DNA from: Symploca sp. SIO2E9
GTDB taxonomy: Bacteria; Cyanobacteriota; Cyanobacteriia; Cyanobacteriales; Coleofasciculaceae
Length of the DNA stretch: 32,000 nucleotides
Assembly: GCA_010692645.1 (NCBI GenBank)
Contig: JAAHGS010000030.1
Coordinates: forward strand, 15,553 to 47,552
Reading direction: 5' to 3'
The notes under the pieces were generated by a model. It made no database searches. It was not told the origin of the DNA and was given only the letters and a program-made list of their open reading frames with translations. How positions within the stretch are numbered: the first letter of the stretch is position 1; each line of letters begins with the position of its first letter. Below, in pieces: positions 2,903 through 29,505 of this stretch. The translations under genes and the position numbers were made by a program.

Positions 2903-3649
2903 TTAACCTATAACTGGTAACATTTCAGGATGAATAGCGATCGCATGCCCAACATGCCAGCGAATATTAGGATAGGCTGCTTCTAGGGGGGTGATTTCAT
3001 ATCCTAGAGCTCTCAGAAAAGAAGCAATCTCCTCACTTTTGCGTTTGAAAGCCAAGCCATTGCCATCATCTACCTCATAAATGATGATTGGTTTAAATTC
3101 ATTCAGGGTTTGGACCATTCCCCTTAAAACCTCAATTTCTGCACCTTCAACATCAACTTTTACAAATGTTGGTGGTAGTAAAGTCTTCTGTAAGACTAAA
3201 TCATCAATACAGACGAGATCAACTGTCATTTCTCCCTTCAAATCAGGAGGTGTACCAGCAGTAGAGAGAGTAGCTCCTCCATGATGATGTGCTAGCAACA
3301 GCTCTCCACTTCCTGTGGTGTGGGAAACTGCTTTTTCCAGCAAGGTTACATTTGAGAACTCATTTAGTTTGACATTCTCTGAAATCCTAGCAGCGTTCTC
3401 TGGAACCGGCTCAAAAGCATAGACCTGTCCTGAAGCTCCAACTAGCTTAGCAGCAATTACAGTAAAGAAGCCAATATTAGCACCAATATCGTAGAAGATT
3501 CCCTCAGGTTTTAAGTAGCGTTGTAAAGCTTTCTGAAGCGGAAGTTCATAAGTACCTACTTTACAATCACGATTAGACTTATCAGCTTTGAACTTTAGTC
3601 CTGCACCTACTCCCTGACTAAGAGTAACATCTTGATTTTGGAAAACCAT
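2903..3649 (-). CDS. FkbM-family SAM-dependent methyltransferase
   Basis: A 248-aa ORF with an ATG start. It carries the motifs FYDIGANIGFFTV, VYAFEPVPENAARISENVKLN and FVKVDVEGAEIEVLRG, which are typical of FkbM-type methyltransferases. Confidence 0.85.
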   Translation of the reverse strand: MVFQNQDVTLSQGVGAGLKFKADKSNRDCKVGTYELPLQKALQRYLKPEGIFYDIGANIGFFTVIAAKLVGASGQVYAFEPVPENAARISENVKLNEFSNVTLLEKAVSHTTGSGELLLAHHHGGATLSTAGTPPDLKGEMTVDLVCIDDLVLQKTLLPPTFVKVDVEGAEIEVLRGMVQTLNEFKPIIIYEVDDGNGLAFKRKSEEIASFLRALGYEITPLEAAYPNIRWHVGHAIAIHPEMLPVIG

Positions 3650-6922: not shown

Positions 6923-8983
6923 AGACTTACCACAGATATTTTTGTATTGAGATAGTAAATCATCAGCAACCTTCTCGAACGAGAAAAACTCAACTGCTCG
7001 TTTACGCCCAGCCTGCCCCAGAGATTTTCTTAACTCTTCGTCTGAAAAAAGTTGTATAATAGCTTCTGCTAAGGCATCAGCATCACTGCGTTCAACTAGT
7101 TTTCCTGTCTTACCATCTTCGACTAGTTCTGGAAAAGCACCACCGTGGGTAGCAATTACAGGAACACCTGCAACCATAGCTTCAGCAATAGGCATACCAA
7201 ATGCTTCGTGGCATATTGACGGGAAGATAAAAATGTCAGTCTGCTGGTAATATTTAGCCAAGTTTGAAGGTGGAACTAAACCAGCTAATGATAGTGGTTT
7301 AGGGACATTGTCACCAGCTTGACCATTCAACTGAGATAACTGTTTTTTCAGATAACTTATCCAAGTATCATCACGGTGGAATGAGACTAAATCTGCAACT
7401 TTGGGGTCATCACTCAATGCCACAAGGTATTCGTAGGGTATTACTCCTAAGGGACCTACTAGAGTAAGTTGTGTTTCTGGATATTGTGCAACTACTTTTT
7501 GAAAAGCTTCTAATAATACATGCACTCCTTTTTCTGGACAAACTCTGCCAACAAAAAGCAAGCGTTTGACATTATTTTTATTGGTTAGATTTTGACCAAG
7601 AAGAGAGGAATTAATAAAACGCTCAACATTCACGCCATTGGCAATAGCCTGACAGCGTTGAGCAAATTGAGGAAAACGCTGGCTAATAGCTTTTGTAATA
7701 TACTGACTAGGGCCGATAACTAAATCGACTTTACTGAGCCTTCCTTCAAGGCTTTTTTTGTCAAGTTGTGAGAGCCACTCACAATGCATGTGCAGGACTA
7801 TTTTTATGCCAGGATTAAAAGCTCGTATAACTGGAATAAACTGAGAGAAATTGTGAATATGAACAACGTCACATTGCTGCTTTCTCAAGTCATTTGCTAT
7901 CCTTAAAATATATCCTAGATAATATAAATTAGAACCAAAGATAGGGCGCTTAGTCTGGTCAAAGCCTGGAAACTTTTCCAGATACTTGAGCAATAACTTA
8001 TCTTGACTTATGGGGATATATCGATAATCCACTCCTTGATGAGAGACTTCCTTAAAGCTTTCTCCTGGTGTATAGACTATGACCTCGCAATCGGATGACA
8101 AAAGACTTACCAATTCGTAAGTCAAAATCCCAATTGAATCAGCGGGTTTAGGATAGCTTGTCATCACCATAGGCTGACCGATAAATGCTATCTTTAATCT
8201 GTCTGGAGAATCTGCTTTCTTTAACTTATTTTGCTGGCGATAAAGCTGGCTTAACTTATTGTGGATTAACTTATTGTAAACTTCCGCGTCGCTGGAATTG
8301 AGTTCTAGGGCTTGTTGATAGGAGTCGATCGCCTCTTCCAGCTTGCCTTGTTCTTGCAGTGCTAATCCTAAGTTATAATGTGCAAGGGCTAAGTCTGGCT
8401 GTAAAGCGATCGCCTGACGATAGTAAGTAATAGCATTCTTCAAATCCCCTGCTTTTTTCTGGCTAAGACCAAGATCATGGTTTAGTGCTGCGTAGTAGGG
8501 TTGTTTTTCTGGAGGGAGTTTCCCTAAGACATGGAGGGCGTTAGCCCAATTAACACTAATCTCAATAGAATCCGGCTTAACTTCGAGGGCTTTTTGATAG
8601 CAGGCGAGTGCCTCTTCCCAAAGCCCTTGTTGTTGTAATGTATAACCAAGGTTGTTGTGAACTGCTACCAACTTCGGTTGCATTGCTAAGACTCGATGGT
8701 AAGCTTCCACCGCTTCTGGCAATTGACCTTGAACTTGGCGCAAATTGCCTAGACTGAACCAAGCCTTGACAGAATTTGGCTGGACATAAAGGATCGCATT
8801 AAAAAACTTCTCTGCATTCTCGTATTGCCCTACCTGCTGTGCCAGCATTCCTAACCCGTGTAATGCCTCTGGATGCTTAGGCTGTATTTTCAGGATCTTA
8901 TCGTAAAACTGCTTAGCTTGGGGTAAACGATTAGCCCGATGATGTTGAACAGCAAGTTGAAGTGTTTCAGAAACGGTTACCAT
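6908..8983 (-). CDS. TPR-repeat protein fused to a GT4-family (Glycos_transf_1) glycosyltransferase
   Basis: The track start at 8989 is a TTG, and the ATG at 8983 gives MVTVSETLQLAVQHH. The N-terminal part is about 270 aa of TPR repeats. The C-terminal part has the GT-B motif EAFGMPIAEAMVAGVPVIATHGGAFPELVEDGKTGKLV. Confidence 0.85.
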   Translation of the reverse strand: MVTVSETLQLAVQHHRANRLPQAKQFYDKILKIQPKHPEALHGLGMLAQQVGQYENAEKFFNAILYVQPNSVKAWFSLGNLRQVQGQLPEAVEAYHRVLAMQPKLVAVHNNLGYTLQQQGLWEEALACYQKALEVKPDSIEISVNWANALHVLGKLPPEKQPYYAALNHDLGLSQKKAGDLKNAITYYRQAIALQPDLALAHYNLGLALQEQGKLEEAIDSYQQALELNSSDAEVYNKLIHNKLSQLYRQQNKLKKADSPDRLKIAFIGQPMVMTSYPKPADSIGILTYELVSLLSSDCEVIVYTPGESFKEVSHQGVDYRYIPISQDKLLLKYLEKFPGFDQTKRPIFGSNLYYLGYILRIANDLRKQQCDVVHIHNFSQFIPVIRAFNPGIKIVLHMHCEWLSQLDKKSLEGRLSKVDLVIGPSQYITKAISQRFPQFAQRCQAIANGVNVERFINSSLLGQNLTNKNNVKRLLFVGRVCPEKGVHVLLEAFQKVVAQYPETQLTLVGPLGVIPYEYLVALSDDPKVADLVSFHRDDTWISYLKKQLSQLNGQAGDNVPKPLSLAGLVPPSNLAKYYQQTDIFIFPSICHEAFGMPIAEAMVAGVPVIATHGGAFPELVEDGKTGKLVERSDADALAEAIIQLFSDEELRKSLGQAGRKRAVEFFSFEKVADDLLSQYKNICGKSVHGS

Positions 8984-9163: not shown

Positions 9164-12100
9164 TTATGGATAAGCGAAGTACAAATTATCTAGATGACTG
9201 CCATCGTCTGAGGATTTTGCCATCATTTTCTCGGCAATTGCATTCCGTAAGGGAGCCACTTGATCTGTGGTTAGCCAGGTGAATAACTCCGTCACTGCCT
9301 CTGGTGAACTATCGATTTTGACTGCTTCTTGAACCAGACGAAATGCAGCAGCAAGATTGCCAGCTTTTAGAGGAATTTGCGCTTGTGTTAGGCACAAATT
9401 AAAGTAATGGCGACGGGCTTTTGCCGTAATTTGTGTACGATGCTCAGCAGGAAGATAACTCTCTGAGATTTCAATTCCTTTGCGGTAGTATTCCCCCTGT
9501 ACCCCGGCTAGAAAAACTTCACTGGACATATTTTGGGAGTGCTGACGGTAACGGGCTAAAATTCCTGGCTCGAACCACCAATCATAAAAAGCAGCAATGC
9601 GTTTATAGAGTTCCCAGTCTGGTGTATATAGATTCCCTGGATCATAAACTCCCAATCGTTCATGAGCTACTCGACGAATTACAGTTGCACAGGGATTTAA
9701 GGGGTTTGAAACACCAATTCGCTGTAGCCATTCCTGATTGATGCCCTGTTGCATTCGAGCATGCTTTTGGGTGAAAGTTACCTGCCTGTTGTCATTAATA
9801 TTTTCATAACCTGTAAAAGCTGCTCCTACAGAATCTGGACATCCCTCTAGACTCTGTTGTAATCGAGAATAAAAACCTGGGAGGACATATTCATCCTCAG
9901 GGAGCAGGTGAATCCACTTACCACGACTGAGGGCAATTCCCAGATTAAAATTACGCCTAGCTCCAATATTTTCTGGATTTAGATAATAGCGGACTATTCC
10001 ACCACCAATGGCATTAACTAAATTATATAGAGGTGGATTACTGGCATTATCCATAACCAGAATTTCCATCTCTTCTTTACCTTGCCACTGAGCCAGCACG
10101 CTGGCAAGACATTCCAGAAGATAGTATTTCCGATTGTACAAGGGAATAATTACTGTCCAAAAAGGTCGTTTCTCCTCACTCTCTGCAACAGGAGGAATTA
10201 CTGGAAACTGATAGTTACCAACAGTGACTTCCTCTAGTTGTAGCTGCGGAGGTTTGTGTTCTTCTGTAGGAGTAGTAGAACCCTGGTATGCTTCGACGGC
10301 TTCAGCATAGCGAGGATTGATTAGCTTTAATCCCTGCCTATAAGCGGCAGCAGCTTCTTCTAATTTGTGCTGTATTTGGTAAATCTGTCCCAAGCCCAAA
10401 TAAAATTCCCCGTAGTTGGGATTGAGTTCCAAGGCTTGGTGATAGCAAGTGATGGCTTCTTCTAAATTTCCTTGTGTTTGTAGGGCTACCCCCAAGTTAT
10501 AGTGAGCTTCCCATAAGTCTCGCTGTAGGGTAATTGCCTCCCGATAGTATGCCACAGCATTGTTCATATCCCCAGCTTGTTTCCGGGCAAAGCCTAATTT
10601 GTTATTTAATTGTCCATAGTGTGCTTGTTTATCTGTGGAGAGTTTTCCTTGGGCGTGAAGGGCATTGCCCCAATTCACGTCGGCTTCAACGCAGTTAGGC
10701 TCAAGTTCCAGGGCTTTTTGATAGCAAGCGATCGCTTCTTCAAACTTACCTTGCTGTTGTAGAGTGTAACCGAGGTTGTTATAAATTGGTGCTGATTTTG
10801 GTTGCAGGGCAATAGCTTGCTGATAAGCCGCTTCTGCTTCTGGTAATTGAGCTTGAGCTTGATGCAAATTGCCTAAACTAAACCAACTCTTGAAAGATTC
10901 TGGCTGAACCTTAAGGGCTTTATTCAGTAACTTCTCAGCTTCTTGGGGTTGATTATTCTGCTGCGCTAGTACACCTAAACCATGTAAAGCTTCCGGGTGA
11001 TTAGGCTCTTGTGCGAGAACTTTCTGGTAATCCTGCGCAGCTTTGGCTAAATGATTGGCTCTATGGTTTTGAACAGCAAGCTTGAGAGTTTGAGAAACTT
11101 GAGAAACTTTTGCCATATCAAATTCCCTTTTTTCTTGATGCCGAAAGCTTTGATTTAATCTGTTCCTAACCGATACATCTTGTTGAGCAACTGTATTCAA
11201 GATAAAATCCTCTAAGGCTGTAATCGGTTCTTGGTCTCCGTATAATTTATGTTTATTCTGGGCTACTAGACTGGATATGTGTTGACGATATTGAGGATCT
11301 TTCCCTAAACGGACAGCAATCTTCACATATTCATCCTTACTAGAAGCAATTGTCTCCTCAATACCCATCATTTTGAGAATGGCAACCGCATGTCTTGCCC
11401 GCATCAACTCTCCTGGATAGGTAACAATTGGCAGGTTATGGGCAGTAGATTCCATAATCGTGTTGTTTCCAGACCAACCAATATTATCGAGGAAAACATC
11501 AGCAATAGCAGTTACTCCAGCAAATTTTCTACCCTTTAGGCGAGGCACAAAGATGCAATAGTCTTGATAATTAAGTCCAAATTCCTCAAAAGCACGACTT
11601 AAACGCTGTTGAAATACTTCAGTTACTTTGTCACTGGCATCCATAAGATGCTTAATAAAAACAAATTTACAGTTTATTAATTCCTTAGCAATCCTTGGAA
11701 AAATATCATCATGTTGAGGTAAATACTTAAACAATGATTGGCAGCACCAGAACATAACTTCATGCTCAGCAATGCCGATTTCCTGTTTACTAATTGCTTG
11801 GGTTTGGATATTTAAAAAGGTGTAATAAATTGCTAAATTTGGTAATCTGACTAACTTCTCAGTGTAATGTTCTTGAGCATTATCTGGTTCCATTAAATCA
11901 CTACTTAAGTGATAATCAATGGTTGGTAGACCACTGGTTTCTGGATGTCCTCCAAATACTACTTGCACAGGAGCTAATCTTAAACATCCCAGCTTAATTG
12001 TGATCGGATCCATCCCAAATTCAGGAAAAATTAGGATGTGTAGATTATCTCGCCGAATAACCTCACACCATTTTTCTATACTTAACGGACCTTGAATAAA

Positions 12101-13363
12101 TTTGCTAACAGCTTGAGTTGCTCTTGCTGTGGCATCATCCTGTTTGGAACCTGTATAATACCCAAATACTTCAAACAGATTTCTATTCAGGTTTTCTAAC
12201 CAACCTTTAATTGGTATTTTCCAAACGGAATGGTTGTTAAAAAAACCAGAAATAAAGCCCACACGAATTTTTTCGTTCGCCGCTAAATCCGGAATTGAAA
12301 TTGGCTGGCTCCATTGAGGATAGCGGCTCGACATTAGCCGACAAATCATCTCCCCATAAGTTTGCTGCAAATCTCGGTCATTTAGACCTTGATATGCTAG
12401 ATAAAATGGCTGAAGAGAGCCAACGGCATCAGCTGCATTTGCCAGTTCTTTTTGATTCTCAAGTTTATAACTATCAGCTAAAGCTTGTAGATGCTGCTGG
12501 TAATTATTCCGCATTAATAAGATTTCGTCAGCACTTGAATAGATAGTAGGAAGTTGACTCATACAAATGCCAAATTTGGCTTCATTGAAGTTAGGCTTAA
12601 GCTTTAAGGCTTGCTGGTAAGATTGTATGGCTTCCTCTAACTTTCCCTGTCTCTTGAGCGCATTTCCTAAATTGTAATAAACCTCAACACAGTCAGGGTT
12701 TAACCTTAATGATTGACGGTAAGCTTGTACTGCTTCCTCTATTTTTTTTTGTTCCTTGAATGCCTTGCCTAAATTATTATAAACTTCAGCAAAGTCAGGA
12801 TTGAGTCTTAAGGCTTGCTGGTAAGACTGTATGGCTTCCTCTAACTTTCCCTGTTCGTGAAGAAGATTTCCTAAATTGTTATAAGCATGAGCATAGTTAG
12901 GGTTGAGCCTTATTGCTTGTTGGTAAGCTTGTACAGCTTCCTCTAACTTTCCCTGTGCTTTGAGTACGTTTGCTAAATTGTTATGAGCCTGAACATAGCT
13001 AGGATTGACCCTTATTGCTTGCTGGTAGGACTTAACAGCTTGCTCTAATTTTATCTGTTGTTGGAATGCATTTCCCAAGTTGTAATGAGCTTCAACAAAA
13101 TCAGATTTGATCTTGATAGCTTGCTGGTAAGATTGTACTGCTTCCTCTAACTTTCCCTGCTTCTGGAGGAGATTGCCTAAGTCAGTAATTATCAGGTGAT
13201 ATATGTTACTTAGGAAATCTTGTTCTACTGCACTAGTAGACTGAGTTTCTAATACCTGTCTGTATATAGATTCAGCCTCATGCAATTCGCCTAATTTATG
13301 TTTCTGGGATGCAGTCTCAATTAGAGATTTAATATTTGGTTCTAAAAAGTTTTTGGTATTCAT
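9164..13363 (-). CDS. Multidomain glycosyltransferase: TPR array - GT41 (SPY/O-GlcNAc-transferase-like) domain - second TPR array - GT2 domain
   Basis: The track start at 13417 is a TTG that overlaps a hairpin. The ATG at 13363 gives MNTKNFLEP. The N-terminal TPRs carry repeated ...AHxNLGNxxxxQGKLEEAxxxYQQAxxLxP units. The central region has the GT41-like motifs IRVGFISGFFNNHSVWK, VVFGGHPETSGLPTIDYHLSSD and HYTEKLVRLPN. A second TPR block starts at the internal MAKVSQVSQTLKLAV (ATG at 11116). The C-terminal GT2 domain has WTVIIPLYNRKYYLLECLASVLAQ...ILVMDNAS...LLPEDEY. Confidence 0.85.
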   Translation of the reverse strand: MNTKNFLEPNIKSLIETASQKHKLGELHEAESIYRQVLETQSTSAVEQDFLSNIYHLIITDLGNLLQKQGKLEEAVQSYQQAIKIKSDFVEAHYNLGNAFQQQIKLEQAVKSYQQAIRVNPSYVQAHNNLANVLKAQGKLEEAVQAYQQAIRLNPNYAHAYNNLGNLLHEQGKLEEAIQSYQQALRLNPDFAEVYNNLGKAFKEQKKIEEAVQAYRQSLRLNPDCVEVYYNLGNALKRQGKLEEAIQSYQQALKLKPNFNEAKFGICMSQLPTIYSSADEILLMRNNYQQHLQALADSYKLENQKELANAADAVGSLQPFYLAYQGLNDRDLQQTYGEMICRLMSSRYPQWSQPISIPDLAANEKIRVGFISGFFNNHSVWKIPIKGWLENLNRNLFEVFGYYTGSKQDDATARATQAVSKFIQGPLSIEKWCEVIRRDNLHILIFPEFGMDPITIKLGCLRLAPVQVVFGGHPETSGLPTIDYHLSSDLMEPDNAQEHYTEKLVRLPNLAIYYTFLNIQTQAISKQEIGIAEHEVMFWCCQSLFKYLPQHDDIFPRIAKELINCKFVFIKHLMDASDKVTEVFQQRLSRAFEEFGLNYQDYCIFVPRLKGRKFAGVTAIADVFLDNIGWSGNNTIMESTAHNLPIVTYPGELMRARHAVAILKMMGIEETIASSKDEYVKIAVRLGKDPQYRQHISSLVAQNKHKLYGDQEPITALEDFILNTVAQQDVSVRNRLNQSFRHQEKREFDMAKVSQVSQTLKLAVQNHRANHLAKAAQDYQKVLAQEPNHPEALHGLGVLAQQNNQPQEAEKLLNKALKVQPESFKSWFSLGNLHQAQAQLPEAEAAYQQAIALQPKSAPIYNNLGYTLQQQGKFEEAIACYQKALELEPNCVEADVNWGNALHAQGKLSTDKQAHYGQLNNKLGFARKQAGDMNNAVAYYREAITLQRDLWEAHYNLGVALQTQGNLEEAITCYHQALELNPNYGEFYLGLGQIYQIQHKLEEAAAAYRQGLKLINPRYAEAVEAYQGSTTPTEEHKPPQLQLEEVTVGNYQFPVIPPVAESEEKRPFWTVIIPLYNRKYYLLECLASVLAQWQGKEEMEILVMDNASNPPLYNLVNAIGGGIVRYYLNPENIGARRNFNLGIALSRGKWIHLLPEDEYVLPGFYSRLQQSLEGCPDSVGAAFTGYENINDNRQVTFTQKHARMQQGINQEWLQRIGVSNPLNPCATVIRRVAHERLGVYDPGNLYTPDWELYKRIAAFYDWWFEPGILARYRQHSQNMSSEVFLAGVQGEYYRKGIEISESYLPAEHRTQITAKARRHYFNLCLTQAQIPLKAGNLAAAFRLVQEAVKIDSSPEAVTELFTWLTTDQVAPLRNAIAEKMMAKSSDDGSHLDNLYFAYP

Positions 13364-13415
13364 TTTTAGAAAACGCACTTTTTTTGCGGCGGTATAAATT
13401 TTGAAGAGTAAAGGC

Positions 13416-13434
13416 AAAGGAGAGTCTCTCCTTT
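13416..13434 (-). terminator. Short inverted repeat aaaggagag-t-ctctccttt downstream of the HetP-family gene; weak terminator candidate
   Basis: Nine-bp arms separated by 1 nt, located between the HetP-family stop (13501) and the next gene's ATG (13363). No clear U-tract follows. Confidence 0.3.
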
Positions 13435-20831: not shown

Positions 20832-21191
20832 TTAGTAACGAGGGATGCGATCATCAACAAGCAGCGAGTAGGCATCAATACCACCAGAAATATTTTTGAC
20901 GTTAGTGAAGCCCTGGCTAGCTAGCCACTGGCACATCTGAGCTGAGCGGACACCGTGATGGCACATAACTAGGGTTTCGTTGTCTCGATCAAAGCGAGTT
21001 GTGATTTGGTCAGACCATTGAGCAAATTCACTTAAGGGTAACACCTCAAAGCCCTCAAGATGGGCAATCTCTACCTCCTGAACCTCTCGTACGTCGATTA
21101 ATTGGAGAGTATCAGAAGAAAGAGCTATCCTTTGAGCCAATTCCTCAACAGAGATTTCGGGGATGGATTGATCGGGAGATTGATTTACCAT
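20832..21191 (-). CDS. Single-domain rhodanese-like sulfurtransferase
   Basis: The track start at 21194 is a TTG, and the ATG at 21191 gives MVNQSPDQ. The active-site loop is VMCHHGVRSAQMCQWL, followed by NISGGIDAYS. Confidence 0.85.
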   Translation of the reverse strand: MVNQSPDQSIPEISVEELAQRIALSSDTLQLIDVREVQEVEIAHLEGFEVLPLSEFAQWSDQITTRFDRDNETLVMCHHGVRSAQMCQWLASQGFTNVKNISGGIDAYSLLVDDRIPRY

Positions 21192-21384
21192 CAAAATTTT
21201 TCCAAAAATCTATAAGACTTATTAAAGTACTGCTCATGAAACGACGAACAAGGAATCCCTAATGTAATCTTAACGGTAGGGAAACCCACAACAAATCGAA
21301 GAAGATGGCATGGGAGGATGTCACTTAGTGGTTGGCAAGAATAGGTGAGTGCTCCACACACTGACTCTACGAGTACAGTGTGGG

Positions 21385-21640
21385 CTTCTTAAGACTTTTT
21401 AAGACAGCCTCAGTCAATAGCCTCAGTCTTCCGTCGTGCTAGGGAGACTACGTTGCCCAGAATGTATAGGCACTCAGGGGTGTAGGGCTGACAACCCGCG
21501 TTCTAGCCCCGGACTCTGCGGCTTTTGATTAAACATCCCTGCTGTGTGAGAGGGGAAGTGTTGAGAGCTAGAAACCTGGGACAACATTGGCGAAGAACAC
21601 CACCTTTACGGGTTCAACTTTATGTAGTTGAAAATCATGA
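21385..21640 (+). ncRNA. Candidate IscB omega RNA (HEARO-type structured RNA); the 5' boundary is approximate
   Basis: The region is ORF-free and lies directly upstream of, and co-oriented with, iscB. By eye, its GC content is higher than that of other intergenic DNA in this window. It contains direct repeats ttaagac x2 (21389, 21399) and agcctcagtc x2 (21406, 21419). The stem gggct/agccc spans 21485-21509. A 7-bp hairpin, ttcaact/agttgaa (21613-21632), ends 4 nt before the ATG. The call rests on position plus visible structure; it is not an alignment to a covariance model. Confidence 0.5.
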
Positions 21641-22965
21641 AAGTTTGTGTAGTTAACATTGGTGAGCGTCCGTTGATGCCCACCACACCGAGAAAAGCCA
21701 AAATCTTGCTCAGGGAGGGAGCAGCAAAGATATTTAGGCGCGACCCATTTACGATCCAATTGCTCAGTGATTGCCACGGCTACATTCAGCCAGCCACCTT
21801 GGGAATTGATGCAGGTTACTTGAACATTGGCTACAGTGCACTCAATCAAACAGCAGAGCTGATTGGCGGCGAAGTCAAAATGCTCGAAGGGATGTCACAA
21901 CGCATAAGCGAAAAGCTTAAGTACCGTCGCACTCGTCGTAATCGATTGCGTTATAGAGCGCCAAGATTCAATAACCGTCGGCGCAATAATGGTTGGTTAA
22001 CTCCGAGTATCGAGCACAAGTTAGATACCCACCATCGTCTCATCGACCGAATTAAGTCCGTGTTGCCGATTGAGACAGTAGTGATAGAAGTAGCCAACTT
22101 TGACATCCAAAAAATCAAGAATCCAGAAATCTCTGGAAATGGGTATCAACAAGGGGAACAAAATGGTTTCGACAATTTGAGGGAGTACCTGTTACATCGA
22201 GATGGGCATAAATGTCAGCATCCAGAGTGCAAAAATAAATCCAAACAACCCAATCTTCAAGTACATCATTTGGGCTTTTGGAAAAATCCTCCAGACCGCA
22301 CTGACCGCCCTGGTAATCTCATCACTCTCTGCAACAAATGTCATACCCCAGCGCAGCACAAAAAGAAAGGAAAATTGTTTGGATGGGAGCCAAAAATCAA
22401 GCCATTCAAGCCTGAGACTTTCATGTCTACAGTGCGGTGGAGGCTTGCCAAAGATACTGGTTACAAGGCAACTTTTGGGTACATCACGAAAGCGAAACGC
22501 CGCATTTTAAAGTTGGATAAATCACATCATAATGATGCTTTTGTCATTGCTGGAGGCGAGTATCAAACTAGGTGTGAGGCATTAAATCTGGTTCAGATAC
22601 GAGGCAACAAGCGTTCAATGGAACAATTCTATGATGCCAAGTATTTGGACATCAGAGATAAAGTGCCAAAATCAGGAACGGAATTGTTTTCTGGTCGTAG
22701 AACGCGCAATAACAATCTTAATAGCGAAAACCTACGAGTGTACCGAGGACACAAATTATCCAAAGGACAGCGTAGGGTTAAAAAGCTTCGCTATCGCTAT
22801 CAACCTCATGATGAGGTTGAATTTGAAGGAGCCGTTTTTGAGGTAGTAGGAATGCAAAACAAAGGCACCGGAGTTAAGTTGAAAGATTACCCAGGCATTA
22901 AGAATAAAGTGGTCAAAATTTCTGCTGTTAAGTCAGTTAAGAAGCGAGGAGGTATTTGTGCTTAA
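21637..22965 (+). CDS. iscB: IscB: IS200/IS605-associated OMEGA RNA-guided nuclease (RuvC split by HNH, PLMP domain, Arg-rich bridge helix)
   Basis: The track start at 21628 is a TTG, and the ATG at 21637 gives MKVCVVNIGERPLMPTTPRKAKILL, which contains the PLMP motif. The remaining motifs, in order, are RuvC-I TLGIDAGYLNIGYSA, RRXRR/bridge KLKYRRTRRNRLRYRAPRFNNRRRNNGW, RuvC-II ETVVIEVANFD, HNH CQHPEC...LQVHHL...GNLITLCNKCH, and RuvC-III KSHHNDAFVIAG. A basic C-terminal domain follows. Confidence 0.85.
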   Translation: MKVCVVNIGERPLMPTTPRKAKILLREGAAKIFRRDPFTIQLLSDCHGYIQPATLGIDAGYLNIGYSALNQTAELIGGEVKMLEGMSQRISEKLKYRRTRRNRLRYRAPRFNNRRRNNGWLTPSIEHKLDTHHRLIDRIKSVLPIETVVIEVANFDIQKIKNPEISGNGYQQGEQNGFDNLREYLLHRDGHKCQHPECKNKSKQPNLQVHHLGFWKNPPDRTDRPGNLITLCNKCHTPAQHKKKGKLFGWEPKIKPFKPETFMSTVRWRLAKDTGYKATFGYITKAKRRILKLDKSHHNDAFVIAGGEYQTRCEALNLVQIRGNKRSMEQFYDAKYLDIRDKVPKSGTELFSGRRTRNNNLNSENLRVYRGHKLSKGQRRVKKLRYRYQPHDEVEFEGAVFEVVGMQNKGTGVKLKDYPGIKNKVVKISAVKSVKKRGGICA

Positions 22966-23040
22966 AAGCACTCAGACGCTCCGATTCATGAGGGGCTGTC
23001 GCACCGAATTCATTCCCAGCGTTTAAACGCCCCATCCCAA

Positions 23041-23143
23041 GGGTGAACGAAATTTTGGTTGGAATTTCAATTCTCCGCGTCTGGAGCGTCTCCGCGTCTC
23101 CGCGTCTGCTTACTCGTTCCCCCACTCTTTTTTTCGCTCACCC
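23041..23143 (+). mobile_element. Family-A MITE copy 2 (103 bp) with a perfect 9-bp target-site duplication
   Basis: The sequence runs gggtgaacgaaattttgg...ccgcgtct repeats...ttttcgctcaccc. The flanks are identical: ccatcccaa at 23032-23040 and 23144-23152. Confidence 0.85.
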
Positions 23144-23262
23144 CCATCCCAAGCTGACCCCTCCGGGGTACAGGCGTGGGGCTTCTTGCCCGAGCAGCTA
23201 AAATAGGCTGAAAATAGGCATAATAACCTAATCTAACGCCTTCGGACGCTTTCAAAATCACC

Positions 23263-25032
23263 ATGAAGCTACGCTCGTTCTTTTCTGTCTTAGCAGTTGG
23301 TGCCATTGGGCTGCTGTTGACTGCTGTAGGAGGCTTTTTCTGGTTAACCTCCCAAAGCCCCCTGAATTTACTGCACGGAGGTGTAAAGACCAATCCAACT
23401 GCTGCAATTTTTGTGCCGAAACAGGCACCGATAATGGTGTCAATGCAAGTTAATCCAGAGCGTTTGGAAGCATTTAGGCAACTAGCAGCACGTCCAGTTT
23501 ATCGGCGACAAGCCCGTGCTGAACTAAAGCAATTTGAACAGAGTCTGCTGGCAATTATTGACGCTGATTTAGACTACCGTCGTGATATTCAACCCTGGTT
23601 GGGAGATGAAATCACTCTAGCTGTTACCTCTCTAGACTTTGACCGCAATCGAGAGAATGCCACACAGCCTGGATACTTACTGGCACTCACCGCTAAAGAC
23701 CCCAAACGGGCCCGAGAGTTCTTACAACTTTTTTACTCCAAGCAGGCGCTCTCTGAAACCTCGGATTTAGTCTTGGAAAAGTACAAAGGCGTTAACCTGT
23801 TTTACAAGCGTCCACTGGTCCAAATGGAGCCATCTGGTGATGATTTTAATCAAAGTCAGATGTTTACAACTCTTACTAGCGCAATCGTGGGGGACCGCTT
23901 TGTGCTATTTGCCAATCATCCCAAAGTTTTACGAAGTGCCATTAACACAGTCCAAGCTGCAAACCTAAGCTTGGAAAATGAGCCTGTCTACCAGCAAACT
24001 CTGCAAAGTCTAAGTGAACCTAGGATTGGTTTAAGTTTTGTAAATCTCCCAGCTTTGACAGCCTGGATTGCTAATCAACCAGTACCTGTGCAGGATACCT
24101 TGCAGGGTTCTGAGACTCTAGCATTTGCCCTGTCACTGGATCTTCAAGGTTTAGTAGCACAAACAGCTTTGGTAGGGGCAGAACCTGGTACTCAAAGCCA
24201 ACAGCCCACTCTCTGTGAACCAGTAGCCGCCTTACAGTATATTCCAGCCAAGAGTGCCTTTGCGATCGCAGGTACTGACTTAAATCAACTCTGGAACCGT
24301 CTTCAGACAGGTGTTGCCAGCGATGAAACCCTCAAACCGTTGCTGGAGAAATCCCTCGCCAGTTTACGCTCACGCTGGGGCATTCAACTGCCAGAGGATG
24401 TATTTAGTTGGGTACAAGCAGAATATGCACTCTCAATGCTGCCTCGCCCAGATAGAGAAAATCCCGATTGGATTTTTGTCGCAGGAAAATTGGATAACTC
24501 AACAGCCCAGGTATCAATTGAGCATCTAGACACTGTTGCCAAGCAACAGGGAATGAGTGTAGGTTTTCTGTCACTGGGAGAACACAAACTCACAGCCTGG
24601 ACAAAGCTGACTACATCTGCTCAAGTTGCTGCTAGTCGCCAAGCAGAAGCAGAGTTGACTCAACCCTTACTAAAGTTAGAAGCACAAGTTCAGGGAGTCC
24701 ATACCACTGTAGGAGATTACGAAATTTTCGCAAGTTCGATTGCTGCAATGGATCAGGCGCTTAAGGGAAGGTTGAATTCTCTGCTCAAAAGTGAGCAATT
24801 TCAAAGTGCGATTGCCTCTTTACCGGAACAAAATGATGGCTATTTTTATCTTGACTGGAAGCGGAGTGAAGCTTTGCTCAAGCGTCAGCTGCCAATTGTG
24901 AGAGTAGCTCAGCTAGTAGGAAAACCTCTATTTGATCATCTGCAATCTCTTAGTCTTAGCAGCTACGGTATCGATAAAGGCATCCGACGAAGCAAGCTGT
25001 TTCTCCGGCTAGATACTACTGAGCAAGTGTGA
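23263..25032 (+). CDS. Conserved cyanobacterial membrane-anchored protein, DUF3352-like
   Basis: A 589-aa ORF with an ATG start. It has an N-terminal signal-anchor (FFSVLAVGAIGLLLTAVGGFFWL) followed by a long soluble region (DIQPWLGDEITLAVTS...). The family name is assigned from memory of similar cyanobacterial proteins and has not been verified. Confidence 0.7.
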   Translation: MKLRSFFSVLAVGAIGLLLTAVGGFFWLTSQSPLNLLHGGVKTNPTAAIFVPKQAPIMVSMQVNPERLEAFRQLAARPVYRRQARAELKQFEQSLLAIIDADLDYRRDIQPWLGDEITLAVTSLDFDRNRENATQPGYLLALTAKDPKRAREFLQLFYSKQALSETSDLVLEKYKGVNLFYKRPLVQMEPSGDDFNQSQMFTTLTSAIVGDRFVLFANHPKVLRSAINTVQAANLSLENEPVYQQTLQSLSEPRIGLSFVNLPALTAWIANQPVPVQDTLQGSETLAFALSLDLQGLVAQTALVGAEPGTQSQQPTLCEPVAALQYIPAKSAFAIAGTDLNQLWNRLQTGVASDETLKPLLEKSLASLRSRWGIQLPEDVFSWVQAEYALSMLPRPDRENPDWIFVAGKLDNSTAQVSIEHLDTVAKQQGMSVGFLSLGEHKLTAWTKLTTSAQVAASRQAEAELTQPLLKLEAQVQGVHTTVGDYEIFASSIAAMDQALKGRLNSLLKSEQFQSAIASLPEQNDGYFYLDWKRSEALLKRQLPIVRVAQLVGKPLFDHLQSLSLSSYGIDKGIRRSKLFLRLDTTEQV

Positions 25033-25035
25033 AAG

Positions 25036-25137
25036 GGGTGAGCGAAAAAAAGAGTGGGGAAATAAGTAAGCAGACGCGGAGACGCGGAGACGCGGAGACG
25101 CGGAGAATTCAAGTCCCACGCAAAATTTCGTTCACCC
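25036..25137 (-). mobile_element. Family-A MITE copy 3 (102 bp, inverted orientation) with a perfect 9-bp target-site duplication that contains the upstream gene's stop codon
   Basis: The sequence runs gggtgagcgaaaaaaagag...gacgcgga x4...aaatttcgttcaccc. The flanks are identical: gtgtgaaag at 25027-25035 and 25138-25146. The TGA at 25030-25032 is the stop of the 589-aa ORF. Confidence 0.85.
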
Positions 25138-25212
25138 GTGTGAAAGTATACTTGGTCTGTGGATTACCAAGTGTTATAGATTTTATGTAATCTGATTCCA
25201 GCTAGCATTTCT

Positions 25213-26219: not shown

Positions 26220-27483
26220 ATGAGGCTGATAGTTTACTCACATGATGCCTTTGGTCTTGGTAACATTAGCAGAATGCTTGCTATCTGTAAGTACCTGTTA
26301 GATACCTCCTCAGAAAATTCTATTTTGCTAATATCAGGTTCTCCTGTTTTGCATAGCTTTCGGATGCCTCAGGGCTTAGATTATATTAAATTGCCTTGCT
26401 TAGGACGAGACAAGTCTGGCAAAATATCTGCTAAATTTCTGGGAAAAAAGCCTCAACAAGTAGCCAAGTTGCGTTCTGAAATTATTAAAGCAGCTATTAT
26501 TAATTTTGAACCGAATCTAATTCTTGTTGATAAAAAACCCTATGGTTTACAGGGAGAGTTAAAATCGACTCTCACTTACTTAAAACAACATTCACCCAAA
26601 ACTAAATTAGTGCTACTTCTGAGAGATATTCTTGACGCACCATCTATAACAATTAAGGAATGGAATAAAAATGGTTATTATCAAGCATTGCAACACTATT
26701 ATCACCAAATATTAATAGTCGGAATACCTGAAGTTTTTGACATTATAAAAGAGTATAATTTTCCACAATCAATTGCAAATAAAACGAAATTTTGTGGTTA
26801 TATCCGTAGGGAATATGGATGTAAACCACCTGAAGTTATTCGTCAAGAATTAAATCTAAAAGCGGATGAAAAATTAGTATTAGTCACACCTGGAGGTGGA
26901 GGAGATGGCTATCACTTAGTCGCAACATATCTACAGGGATTAGAACAACTTCCCTCTCAATCTAATATCAGAAGCTTAATTATTTATGGTCCCGAAATGC
27001 CAGAAGAATTGAGCCAGAATCTTTTGCAAATAGCTCATAAATTTTCTCAGGTACAAATATCAGAATTTACTGATTTTAAAACTTCAGCAAGCTGCTTTAG
27101 ATAAGCATAATCTTACCTTACAAAGATACACACCAAATCTGATTAATTACATGAAAAAAGTTGAACTCTCAATCAGTTTAACTGGATACAACACCACGAT
27201 GAATATTATCAAAACTGGTGTTAATGCTCTGGTAGTTCCTATCGGTCACTATCGCCAAGATAAAGAGCAGTTAATTAGGACGGAGAAACTTGAAAATCTT
27301 GGAATTGTTAAAGTTCTTGAGCCTGAAAAATTAGAACCTACTTATCTAGCTCAAAAAATAATTGGCTGCTTACACAACAAGTTAGAGGTAAAACCTAATC
27401 ATAATTTTGACCTTGAAGGGTCTAAAAATACTGCTGTGTTCTTGAAAGAATTATTACAAAATAATATTGCTATTGCTGCTTAG
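26220..27483 (+). pseudogene. COG4671 / GT28-C-like glycosyltransferase split into two ORFs (26220-27104 and 27151-27483)
   Basis: ORF1 begins MRLIVYSHDAFGLGNISRMLAI, contains LVLVTPGGGGDGY, and ends ...QVQISEFTDFKTSASCFR*. ORF2, in the +1 frame, carries the expected continuation: its frame reads ...HNLTLQRYTPNLINYMKKVELSISLTGYNTTMNIIKTGVNALVVPIG... and is open from 27034. Together the two parts equal one normal-length enzyme. Confidence 0.65.
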
Positions 27484-27578: not shown

Positions 27579-29505
27579 ATGCGTATAGGCAGACGGTTTT
27601 TACCCTATATACGCAAACGCAAATTATTAATTATAGGTTCTTTCTTCGCACTTTTAGTTGACACAGGATTCCGATTACTAGAACCTTGACCTCTAAAATT
27701 TGTGTTTGACCAGGTTTTAGTTGCACAAACTGATAGCTCTTTCAACGTTATAGTAAATGGCGGAATCGATCCGATACTGCTGCTAACCCTATTAGCTTTA
27801 TCTATTGTCTTCATCTCTGTGTTGGGTAGCTTTGCTGCTTATGTGAGCACCTTTGGTATGGCCTTAGCATCAGTGCAGATATTAACCGATATTCGTAGCG
27901 ATCTATTCAGTCACCTTCAACGCTTATCTCTAAACTTTTATTTCAAGCATAAAAGTGGTGATTTAATTGCTTGCGTCACCGCTGATATAGACCGCATCAA
28001 ACTGGCTATTGTTAAAGTTATTCTTCCACTTATAACTAACATGATAACTCTATTGGGAATGTTAGTAGTTATGAGTTGGATAAATTGGCAATTATCCCTG
28101 ATTGCGTTGATAGTTTTTCCCATTTCTATTACTGCTATCACTCGCTTGGTTGGTCAGATTCGCCTTGCTAGTCGAGAACATCGTAAGCTTCAGGGAATTT
28201 TAGCTGCAACTACTAGCGAAACCATTGGCGCAATCAAGGTTATACAGGCGCTCTCCCTACACAACCAACTTGAAGACATTTTTGCCGAACAAAACAATCA
28301 AACCTTAAATCACGGGACAAAATCCCTCAAACTCTCGACTGTTCTACAACGAACAGTACAGGTTTTAATAGCGATTGCTATTGCCCTTGTTTTATGGCGT
28401 GGTTCGCATCTAGTTATCCAAAAATCTCTGACTCCTGGCGATTTGCTGGTATTCATCACCTATCTCAAAAACGCTTTTGAACCCCTGCGTAAGCTTGCCA
28501 ATCAATTGGGAGATATTGCTAAAGCCACTGCCTCTGGGGAACGGATTATAGATATCCTTGACTACGAACCTCATGTTCGCAACCTACCCAATGCTAAACC
28601 TGCTCATCCTTTCTTTGGTGCGCTGCGCTTTGAGAATGTGAGCTTTGGGTACGAATCGAGCCATGAAATTTTACGGAATGTCTCCTTTGAGGTGCAACCA
28701 GGTCAACAAATTGCTATTGTCGGTGCTTCCGGTGGTGGAAAATCAACCTTAATCAGTTTGATCCTTCGTCTCTACGATCCTAATTCTGGTCGTATTCTCA
28801 TTGACGGGCAGGATTTGCGGGAATACACATTACAGTCTCTACGAAAGCAAATTAGTGTTGTCCTGCAGGAGAGTATCTTATTTGCCGGTACCATCGGCGA
28901 TAATATTGCCTACGGAAAAATAGGCGCTTCTGATGCAGAGATTGAACGAGCAGGCAAAATCGCCAATGCCCACGACTTTATCATTAATCTGCCTGACGGT
29001 TACAACACCATTTTAGGGGAAAGAGGCATTAAAGACGCGGGGACACGGTGACACGGGGACGCGGGGACAAATTGGATGGGGATTTGACCCCAACCAATTT
29101 TATGCACCGCAAGTGACGGTGGGGTATTTAACCCAAATTAATTTCGATAACCTCTCAGGAGGTCAACGACAAAGAATTGCAATTGCCCGCGCTGCTATCC
29201 GCCAAGCACCAATTGTCATCCTTGATGAACCCACGACGGGTTTAGATAATGCTAGCGAACAAGCACTCAATCAAGCACTCAGTCGTCTGACTCAACAACG
29301 GACAACCTTCCTTATCTCTCACAATCTTAGAGCAGTGGAACAGGCCGATTTAATTCTCTACCTAGAAGGTGGAGAAATTATAGAACGAGGAACACACCAG
29401 CAACTGATGGTTAAAGCTAAGCATTATGCCTCACTCTACCAACTTCAAAATGCCTATCATCCTCCCATTTTACAAGCTATGAACCTGAGCAATTCTGAAT
29501 TTTAA
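27579..29505 (+). pseudogene. ABC exporter (fused TMD-NBD, MsbA-like) inactivated by an in-frame TGA and a MITE insertion
   Basis: The ATG at 27579 gives MRIGRRFLPYIRKRKLLIIGSFFALLVDTGFRLLEP, then a TGA (27687-27689), then PLKFVFDQVL in the same frame. The reading frame breaks after GERG-I (29028-29030) and resumes at N-LSGGQRQRIAIARA (29149 onward). The track ORFs 27702.. and 29113.. begin at GTG codons. Walker A is GASGGGKST and Walker B is IVILDEPTTGLD. Confidence 0.8.
29033..29150 (+). mobile_element. Family-B MITE, long copy (four 8-mer units), inserted inside the ABC exporter gene
   Basis: The copy is flanked by TAA (29030-29032 and 29148-29150). It contains gacgcggg gacacggt gacacggg gacgcggg (29034-29065), followed by arms that match 2341-2430 in reverse complement. 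Removing 29033-29150 gives ggc att aac ctc tca gga ggt caa, which reads G-I-N-L-S-G-G-Q in frame. Confidence 0.85.

Follow-up and report, generated by a model that had tools for sequence, protein, structure and literature searches.

Organization of the locus

The window, meaning the whole 32-kb stretch of DNA analysed here, originates from a metagenome-derived assembly of the cyanobacterium Symploca sp. SIO2E9. Within it, an element encoding the nuclease IscB lies between a rhodanese gene and a gene for a DUF3352 protein. The start of the rhodanese gene (21194, minus strand) and the iscB ATG (21637) are separated by 442 bp. The gap contains no ORFs beyond a few of 30-43 aa, which agrees with the initial annotation, made from the sequence alone, that no credible ORF is present upstream of iscB. 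The GC enrichment described there was also recovered, although it is modest, with a GC content of 0.51-0.53 across 21300-21599 versus 0.375-0.415 in the adjacent flank and 0.40-0.485 in most of iscB. The following features were assigned at this locus:

20832-21194, minus strand: rhodanese gene, divergent from iscB
21329-21344, plus strand: predicted natural guide, TGGTTGGCAAGAATAG, in host flank DNA directly 5' of the scaffold
21345-23196, plus strand: non-autonomous IscB element (ISC, IS200/IS605-type), 1852 bp including a MITE, delimited with 21 copies and the empty site at locus L029
21345-21632, plus strand: omega RNA (HEARO) scaffold, 288 nt, as assigned from a 21-sequence alignment, covariation and RF02033
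21349, plus strand: G in place of the C found in 20 relatives, breaking an outer-stem pair kept by 20/20 relatives
21354-21384, plus strand: subterminal imperfect hairpin of the right end (RE), then GGGCTTCTT; TnpA reads the opposite strand, and in the RNA the same hairpin is the first inner one
21637-22965, plus strand: iscB, 442 aa, intact (Pfam RRXRR and HNH, NCBIfam guided_IscB)
23041-23143, plus strand: nested MITE, 103 nt, with terminal inverted repeats GGGTGAACGAAA and TTTCGCTCACCC, absent from the related copies L001 and L020
23148-23181, plus strand: subterminal imperfect hairpin of the left end (LE), CCCAAGCTG...CAGGCGTGGGG, then CTTCTT, with the element end about 15 nt further on, from comparison with L001 and L020
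23197-23201, plus strand: GCTAA in host DNA, predicted TAM and TnpA target motif, at 12/12 right ends of copies

The protein encoded by iscB matched the Pfam families RRXRR (7e-54) and HNH (1.4e-5) as well as the NCBIfam equivalog guided_IscB, 'RNA-guided endonuclease IscB' (NF040563), with 306.7 bits at a cut-off of 175. Matches to the solved IscB structures TbaIscB (5e-36) and OgeuIscB (3e-29) were found, with the RuvC-I Asp aligned. The N-terminal half carries PLMP at residues 12-15, RuvC-I D58, an Arg-rich (bridge) helix at about 96-116 that includes RRTRR at 97-101, and RuvC-II E151. It is followed by the HNH residues C193/C198, H210-H211, N227 and C232/C235, by RuvC-III H298/D301 and by the C-terminal domain, so that the catalytic motif set is complete. 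Since dN/dS against the closest relative, L001 (94 % aa identity), is 0.11, IscB has been under purifying selection. An exact-sequence look-up returned no record for the IscB protein or for the DUF3352 protein (P0001).

Family assignment of the upstream RNA

The Rfam family RF02033 (HEARO) matches 21360-21603 on the plus strand over the full length of its model (1-211 of 211), with 77.5 bits and an E-value of 2.9e-15 (3.5e-14 in a repeat scan). No other HEARO match, and no other Rfam match with E <= 0.1, was obtained in the window, and further HEARO copies or ends of the same element family were not found there. The gathering score of RF02033 is 83, which places the copy in the window 5.5 bits lower. 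A scan of the whole window at the Rfam gathering thresholds gave no match for this reason, and its empty result is therefore a threshold effect rather than absence of the RNA. At the homologous position, 11 of 20 relatives pass the gathering score, with 85.9 bits for L001. In all 11, model position 1 coincides with the first conserved base and with the boundary found independently. The broken pair at G21349 probably accounts for much of the drop from 85.9 bits in L001 to 77.5 bits in the window. A curated gathering score can thus hide genuine HEARO members with one broken pair.

Conserved structure of the omega RNA

A protein query of genomes yielded 28 cyanobacterial loci with 61-94 % aa identity, from Symploca, Scytonema, Nostoc, Calothrix, Aetokthonos and other genera. 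The upstream regions of the window copy and 20 relatives, each with 20 nt of flank, were aligned. They proved to be conserved with covariation from 21345 to the start codon, the outcome expected for the upstream alignment that had been suggested as a check. The scaffold ends at 21632, 4 nt before the ATG and on the same strand as iscB. Its architecture comprises an outer stem around two hairpins, a long-range stem, a hairpin, and a central stem around two composite hairpins, with the following helices on the plus strand:

21346-50/21412-16, plus strand: outer stem
21354-63/21376-84, plus strand: first inner hairpin, helix 2
about 21383-21409, plus strand: hairpin
21420-22/21589-91, plus strand: long-range stem
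21425-32/21442-49, plus strand: hairpin
21456-60/21576-80, plus strand: central stem
21474-21513, plus strand: helices H8/H9
21521-21568, plus strand: helices H10/H11
21603-12 and 21614-31, plus strand: terminal hairpins, beyond the end of the Rfam model

With the 3' terminal hairpin added, 93.6 % of the cells in the 21 sequences pair, compared to 38-45 % when the partners are slid by 1-3 columns. Double changes occur in 41 of 72 pairs (170 cells), and on each of five measures the observed value exceeded those of all 500 shuffles. RNAalifold predicted 65 pairs, with compensatory changes in 37 of them. Pair-preserving covariation spans 288 nt and 13 helices, including long-range stems whose strands lie about 120-170 nt apart in the window. 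The hairpin at 21354-21384 (helix 2) is 97.9 % paired, with double changes in three pairs. The window copy itself retains 68/72 pairs, on par with its relatives. The fold of the single sequence is only moderately more stable than that of shuffled sequences (z = -2.05). The comparative evidence is the strong part of the case for the structure, and the single-sequence fold alone is unremarkable.

Several structural details of the initial annotation can be read in this context. The stems noted at 21485-21509 and 21536-21555 correspond to the conserved helices H8/H9 (21474-21513) and H11 (21533-21559), both of which show compensatory changes. The 7-bp hairpin at 21613-21632, ending 4 nt 5' of the ATG, is real and conserved as well, with compensatory changes in 4 of 6 counted pairs, for instance C-G here against G-C in most relatives. 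The direct repeats are present as described, TTAAGAC at 21389-21395 and 21399-21405 and AGCCTCAGTC at 21406-21415 and 21419-21428. A role as functional repeats was rejected, as they consist of helix parts and a clade-specific 13-nt duplication. The TTAAGAC pair sits in a hairpin with the palindrome TTAA in its stem (MFE fold), and the AGCCTCAGTC pair represents a 13-nt tandem duplication found only in the Symploca clade (window, L001 and L002). Both lie inside helices, and these repeats are by-products of the RNA structure. The proposed extent of 21385-21640 captured a real feature but missed its beginning, as the scaffold starts 40 nt further upstream, at 21345. The central proposal, a candidate omega RNA (HEARO) upstream of iscB, was supported by the full-length covariance-model match that it had named as a check, by the conserved covarying structure and by the IscB ORF. 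Judged from sequence comparison, 21345-21632 represents an IscB omega RNA scaffold and an ordinary member of a known family.

Two further RNA matches above the respective gathering scores were found near related IscB elements, an NsiR1 sRNA (44.3 bits) at L002 1874-1949 on the minus strand and an AdoCbl-II riboswitch (40.8 bits) at L026 4278-4368 on the plus strand. Both are unrelated to the omega RNA finding.

Element ends and the empty site

The junctions of the element were derived from the 93 %-identical copy L001 and 19 more distant copies, and they carry a 1-nt ambiguity due to a G at each junction. On the left, similarity among the 21 copies starts abruptly at 21345, and the upstream flanks are unrelated and different in each copy. 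The conserved start reads GTGAC(G/A)ACTCCACACAC in the relatives and GTGAGTGCTCCACACAC in the window. On the right, the window, L001 and L020 are similar until ...GGGGCTTCTTGCCCGAGCA/GCTAA (the slash marks the junction here and below) and then diverge. GCTAA abuts the right end in 12/12 copies in which this end was found, with unrelated sequence beyond. On the transposon strand it reads TTAGC and lies 5' of the LE. This is where the target motif of TnpA is located, and the motif is predicted to be the TAM of the nuclease as well. The hairpins at both ends are followed on the same strand by GGG(G)CTTCTT, at 9 nt (RE) and 15 nt (LE) from the element ends. Subterminal imperfect hairpins at both ends without terminal inverted repeats are the arrangement of the IS200/IS605 family. 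In agreement with the description by Meers et al. (10.1101/2023.03.14.532601), iscB is encoded opposite to the strand that runs from LE to RE, and the RE delimits the omega RNA.

An empty orthologous site was found in Symploca sp. SIO1C4 (L029). The DUF3352 protein of the window matches a protein of Symploca sp. SIO2E9 at 100 % identity and its SIO1C4 counterpart at 90 %. In this genome the rhodanese and DUF3352 genes are 159 nt apart and iscB is lacking. Homology of 85-90 % breaks off within the left flank and returns at position 23198 of the window, CTAAAATAGGCTGAAAATAGG. This point of return assigns (G)CTAA to the host and identifies the 1852 bp from 21345 to 23196 as the insertion. The empty site reads ...GAGAAACGA/CTAAAATAGG, with ACTAA in place of GCTAA. 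The SIO1C4 locus confirms only where the right junction lies and that the element is absent. It cannot fix the left junction because the flank there is too diverged, with about 45 nt inserted or deleted and the last 16 nt about 50 % identical, so this junction rests on the 21-copy alignment.

When the flanks in the window are joined, they read ...AAGAATAG/GCTAAAATAGGCTGAAAATAGGCAT without any duplicated segment. The joined flanks hold three tandem AATAGGCT units, which is an internal check on both junctions. The hexamer AATAGG, which occurs at 21340-45 and 23202-07, was considered as a target-site duplication and rejected, since it is explained by these three units. Two of them are present in the sister species SIO1C4, and L001 shows no duplication.

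The window ORFs of 100 aa or more were searched, four of 564-1417 aa excepted, and yielded no Y1 transposase (Y1_Tnp). A nearby tnpA is missing from about 98.5 % of iscB genes in general (Meers et al., 10.1101/2023.03.14.532601).

Predicted guide and homing target

In the relatives above the gathering score, conservation begins with HEARO model position 1, which places the guide in the flank directly 5' of 21345, and conservation ends exactly where the flanks of the copies turn unrelated. The guide/scaffold junction, whose mapping the initial annotation had proposed, can therefore be located, with a predicted natural guide of about 16 nt, TGGTTGGCAAGAATAG, at 21329-21344. Its 3' end is fixed within 1 nt and its length is assumed from published IscB work, in which a guide of 16-17 nt was sufficient for OgeuIscB (PMC9640706). 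The 16-mer is unique in the window, and a search of the window with up to three mismatches for a second guide target returned only the flank itself. The reconstructed joint of the flanks is TGGTTGGCAAGAATAG-GCTAAAATAGG, and the predicted homing target is this excision joint, TGGTTGGCAAGAATAG/GCTAA. The earlier expectation that the guide would reveal the homing target of the element holds insofar as the guide is readable. It is not an independent address, since the guide is flanking host DNA and the target would be the excision joint of the same site.

A promoter and terminator scan revealed no plausible sigma-70-like promoter on the plus strand upstream of the guide. The promoter of the DUF3352 gene was considered as a driver of the RNA. 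Boxes similar to a -10 element lie on both sides of the insertion, and no conclusion was drawn.

The pentamer AATAG is enriched on the guide side of the copies. It is found within 20 nt of the junction in 6/21 copies, namely the window (21325-21344), L001, L003, L006, L012 and L018, compared to about 0.4-0.7 copies expected from a background of 0.00125 per position. The guides of the window and L001, the two closest copies and located in unrelated loci, are identical at 11/16 positions with a 1-nt shift. This was the top value of 1050 comparisons, although values of up to 10/16 occur between unrelated pairs. Short tandem repeats contain several of the reconstructed target sites. That target choice in the ISC clade of Symploca and heterocystous cyanobacteria extends beyond the 5-nt TAM is a doubtful reading of these observations. 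If true, TnpA or IscB would select an extended AATAG-GCTAA site, or some flank DNA, and hence the guide, would travel with the element. Separately, this clade would offer an uncharacterised IscB ortholog with a predicted GCTAA TAM and a 288-nt scaffold.

Nested MITE and signs of wear

The copy in the window shows several signs of wear. The MITE sits between the iscB stop and the LE hairpin and is flanked by a 9-bp target-site duplication, CCATCCCAA, at 23032-23040 and 23144-23152. This duplication regenerates the foot of the LE hairpin. The hairpin itself contains one A:G mismatch that is missing from L001 and L020. In the scaffold, G21349 also alters the terminal pentanucleotide of the RE from GTCAC to CTCAC on the transposon strand, and a second pair (columns 241-277) is broken here and intact in L001.

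A 46-nt segment at 22992-23037 (GAGGGGCTGTCGCACCGAATTCAT...GCCCCAT, with GGGGC/GCCCC ends) also lies between the iscB stop and the LE hairpin. It is found in L020 as well (3290-3335) and is absent from L001, and thus represents an indel polymorphism within the element. It may be a hairpin or a terminator. The copy L020 (Symploca sp. SIO3C6, JAAHHJ010000044.1) retains only IscB residues 189-442 and the right end. It is a 5'-truncated relic of the same element, without the omega RNA.

The MITE belongs to a family of about 103-120 nt with members at 2755-2875, 23041-23143 and 25028-25143 (inverted) in the window. They carry internal GCGTCT(GG/CC) short repeats and 9-bp duplications, TTTAGAGG(G), CCATCCCAA and CTTTCACAC. 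A second short repeat family occurs at 2338-2429 and 29058-29150 (inverted, 98-100 %). Its copy at about 29058-29150 lies between the ORFs 27702-29051 and 29113-29505, which jointly resemble one ABC transporter whose counterpart in Symploca sp. SIO1C4 is a single 621-aa gene. These two ORFs are probably a gene disrupted by a MITE. A GT28-type glycosyltransferase appears to be split as well, into 26220-27104 and 27151-27483, and at this place SIO1C4 has intact genes of 399 and 396 aa. This split is due to either a frameshift or pseudogene, or an assembly error. The 1417-aa minus-strand ORF 9164-13417 contains four tandem 102-nt repeats (73-76 % identity) at 12589-13180. A 300-nt segment is common to 8574-8873 and 10698-10997 (71 % identity), and the ORF looks like a repeat-containing large protein.

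Interpretation

The RNA and protein families, the RNA structure, the boundaries, GCTAA, the empty orthologous site and the purifying selection on iscB were established by the comparisons described above. Overall, they are best explained by an omega RNA gene within a non-autonomous IS200/IS605-type (ISC) element encoding IscB, to which we assign a probability of roughly 90 %. Transcription, RNA processing, DNA cleavage, the role of GCTAA as TAM and homing would be expected from the published mechanism (Meers et al., 10.1101/2023.03.14.532601; Kato et al., PMC9640706; Kapitonov et al., PMC4810608). Transcription would start in the host flank, and about 16 nt of this flank (21329-21344) would be read to become the guide. 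The transcript would continue through the 288-nt scaffold ending at the start codon of iscB, and the scaffold would be bound by IscB. TnpA supplied in trans would excise the element, so that the flanks rejoin as TGGTTGGCAAGAATAG/GCTAA. These rejoined flanks would match the guide, with the TAM directly 3', and could be cut by the complex of IscB and RNA. Recombination with an element-bearing sister chromosome would then restore the insertion. The occupied site would be spared because GTGAG, and not GCTAA, follows the guide match there.

Some observations do not fit this explanation easily. The HEARO score falls short of the gathering score, and the window copy has broken pairs (21349 and columns 241-277), a mismatch in the LE hairpin and a nested MITE. 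There is also no sigma-70-like promoter upstream, no Y1 transposase turned up among the scanned ORFs, and the upstream gene is divergent, contrary to the co-orientation bias reported by Meers et al. (10.1101/2023.03.14.532601). An alternative is that the RNA is a genuine HEARO by descent and that this copy is an immobilised or decaying relic, which is no longer excised by TnpA and perhaps expresses no usable guide. The change at G21349, affecting both a pair kept in 20/20 relatives and the RE terminal motif, the LE hairpin mismatch missing from L001 and L020, and the nested MITE would fit such decay. The same applies to the lack of tnpA among the scanned window ORFs, the divergent upstream gene together with the lack of a consensus promoter, and the truncated copy L020 in the same clade. 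However, iscB is full length with complete catalytic motifs and a dN/dS of 0.11 against L001, the RNA is as well paired as in its relatives, and both end hairpins and termini are physically intact, with the hairpin foot regenerated by the MITE duplication. The missing tnpA is also the usual state of iscB genes (about 98.5 %; Meers et al., 10.1101/2023.03.14.532601). A relic is therefore considered unlikely, while still having an appreciable chance. An immobile or silent copy would not change the identity of the feature.

Two other explanations would dispense with a guide RNA altogether. The function of HEARO was unknown when it was first described, and the structure could be a cis-acting 5' UTR that regulates the translation or stability of iscB instead of a trans-acting guide RNA. 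The scaffold does reach to 4 nt before the ATG, and its hairpin at 21613-21632 overlaps the expected position of the ribosome-binding site. Against this, biochemistry and cryo-EM have identified HEARO-type RNAs as the guide RNAs of IscB, whose terminal hairpins bind PLMP (10.1101/2023.03.14.532601, PMC9640706). Conservation also sets in abruptly at the element end while the flank before it varies, as fits a guide/scaffold junction, which makes a purely regulatory 5' UTR very improbable. Conservation upstream of iscB could also reflect DNA-level signals of the transposon end for TnpA binding, without any RNA. The first 40 nt or so do contain the RE subterminal hairpin, and the GGGCTTCTT motif is common to the other end. 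However, TnpA requires the terminal hairpin alone, and the covariation preserving pairing over 288 nt, 13 helices and long-range stems, as well as the match to an RNA covariance model (E = 3e-15), reach far beyond such signals. An origin in DNA signals alone thus has hardly any probability.

Comparison with known systems

The RNA agrees with HEARO (RF02033) in the full-length model match, in its position and strand relative to iscB and in its stem architecture. It differs in that the scaffold in the window runs 29 nt past the model through two terminal hairpins (21603-21631). RF02033 is known to lack downstream elements (Meers et al., 10.1101/2023.03.14.532601), and in OgeuIscB the PLMP domain is contacted by two hairpins at the end of the omega RNA (Kato et al., PMC9640706).

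OgeuIscB (PDB 7XHT, 7UTN; Kato et al. 2022, PMC9640706) is a homologous protein (E = 3e-29) that shares PLMP, RuvC, bridge helix and HNH with the IscB described here, and its RNA shares the 5' guide, the nested multi-stem core, the linker and the two terminal hairpins. In contrast, the scaffold has 288 nt in the window and 206 nt in OgeuIscB, and the protein has 442 aa compared to 496 aa. The guide-adaptor in the window is a three-way junction of the outer stem and two hairpins, whereas OgeuIscB has a single hairpin of 14 bp in its place. OgeuIscB uses NWRRNA as its TAM (PMC12660989), compared to the predicted GCTAA here.

GstIscB with ISGst (Meers et al. 2023, 10.1101/2023.03.14.532601) is likewise a non-autonomous IS200/IS605 system with an omega RNA bounded by the RE, a guide made of flank DNA, a TAM abutting the LE and iscB antisense to the LE-to-RE strand. 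The residues D58/H209/H210 in Gst correspond to D58/H210/H211 here. On the transposon strand, the TAM is TTCAT in Gst and predicted to be TTAGC in the window. Unlike GstIscB/ISGst, the element in the window resides in a cyanobacterium, and the activity of its IscB is a predicted one.

The cyanobacterial ISC elements, for example ISC1-1_MA of Microcystis (Kapitonov et al. 2016, PMC4810608), share the 5'-GT... terminus, the subterminal imperfect hairpins and the lack of a target-site duplication. They are also inserted directly 5', in iscB orientation, of a short target of the N/ATGA type, and their ends were verified by an empty orthologous site. The target is ATGA, ATAA or ATCA in those elements compared to GCTAA (or CTAA) in the window, where, unlike in those elements, a MITE is nested in the copy.

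HEARO/IscB elements are already well known in cyanobacteria and their mechanism is published, so that the understanding of OMEGA systems is unchanged. The GCTAA target and predicted TAM, the 288-nt scaffold with a three-way guide-adaptor and a borderline score with the Rfam model are specific to this clade. An unannotated intergenic region becomes a fully parsed element with predicted guide, scaffold, nuclease gene, ends, predicted TAM and pre-insertion site, and the target predicted for this IscB, TGGTTGGCAAGAATAG with GCTAA behind it, is specific enough to be tested.
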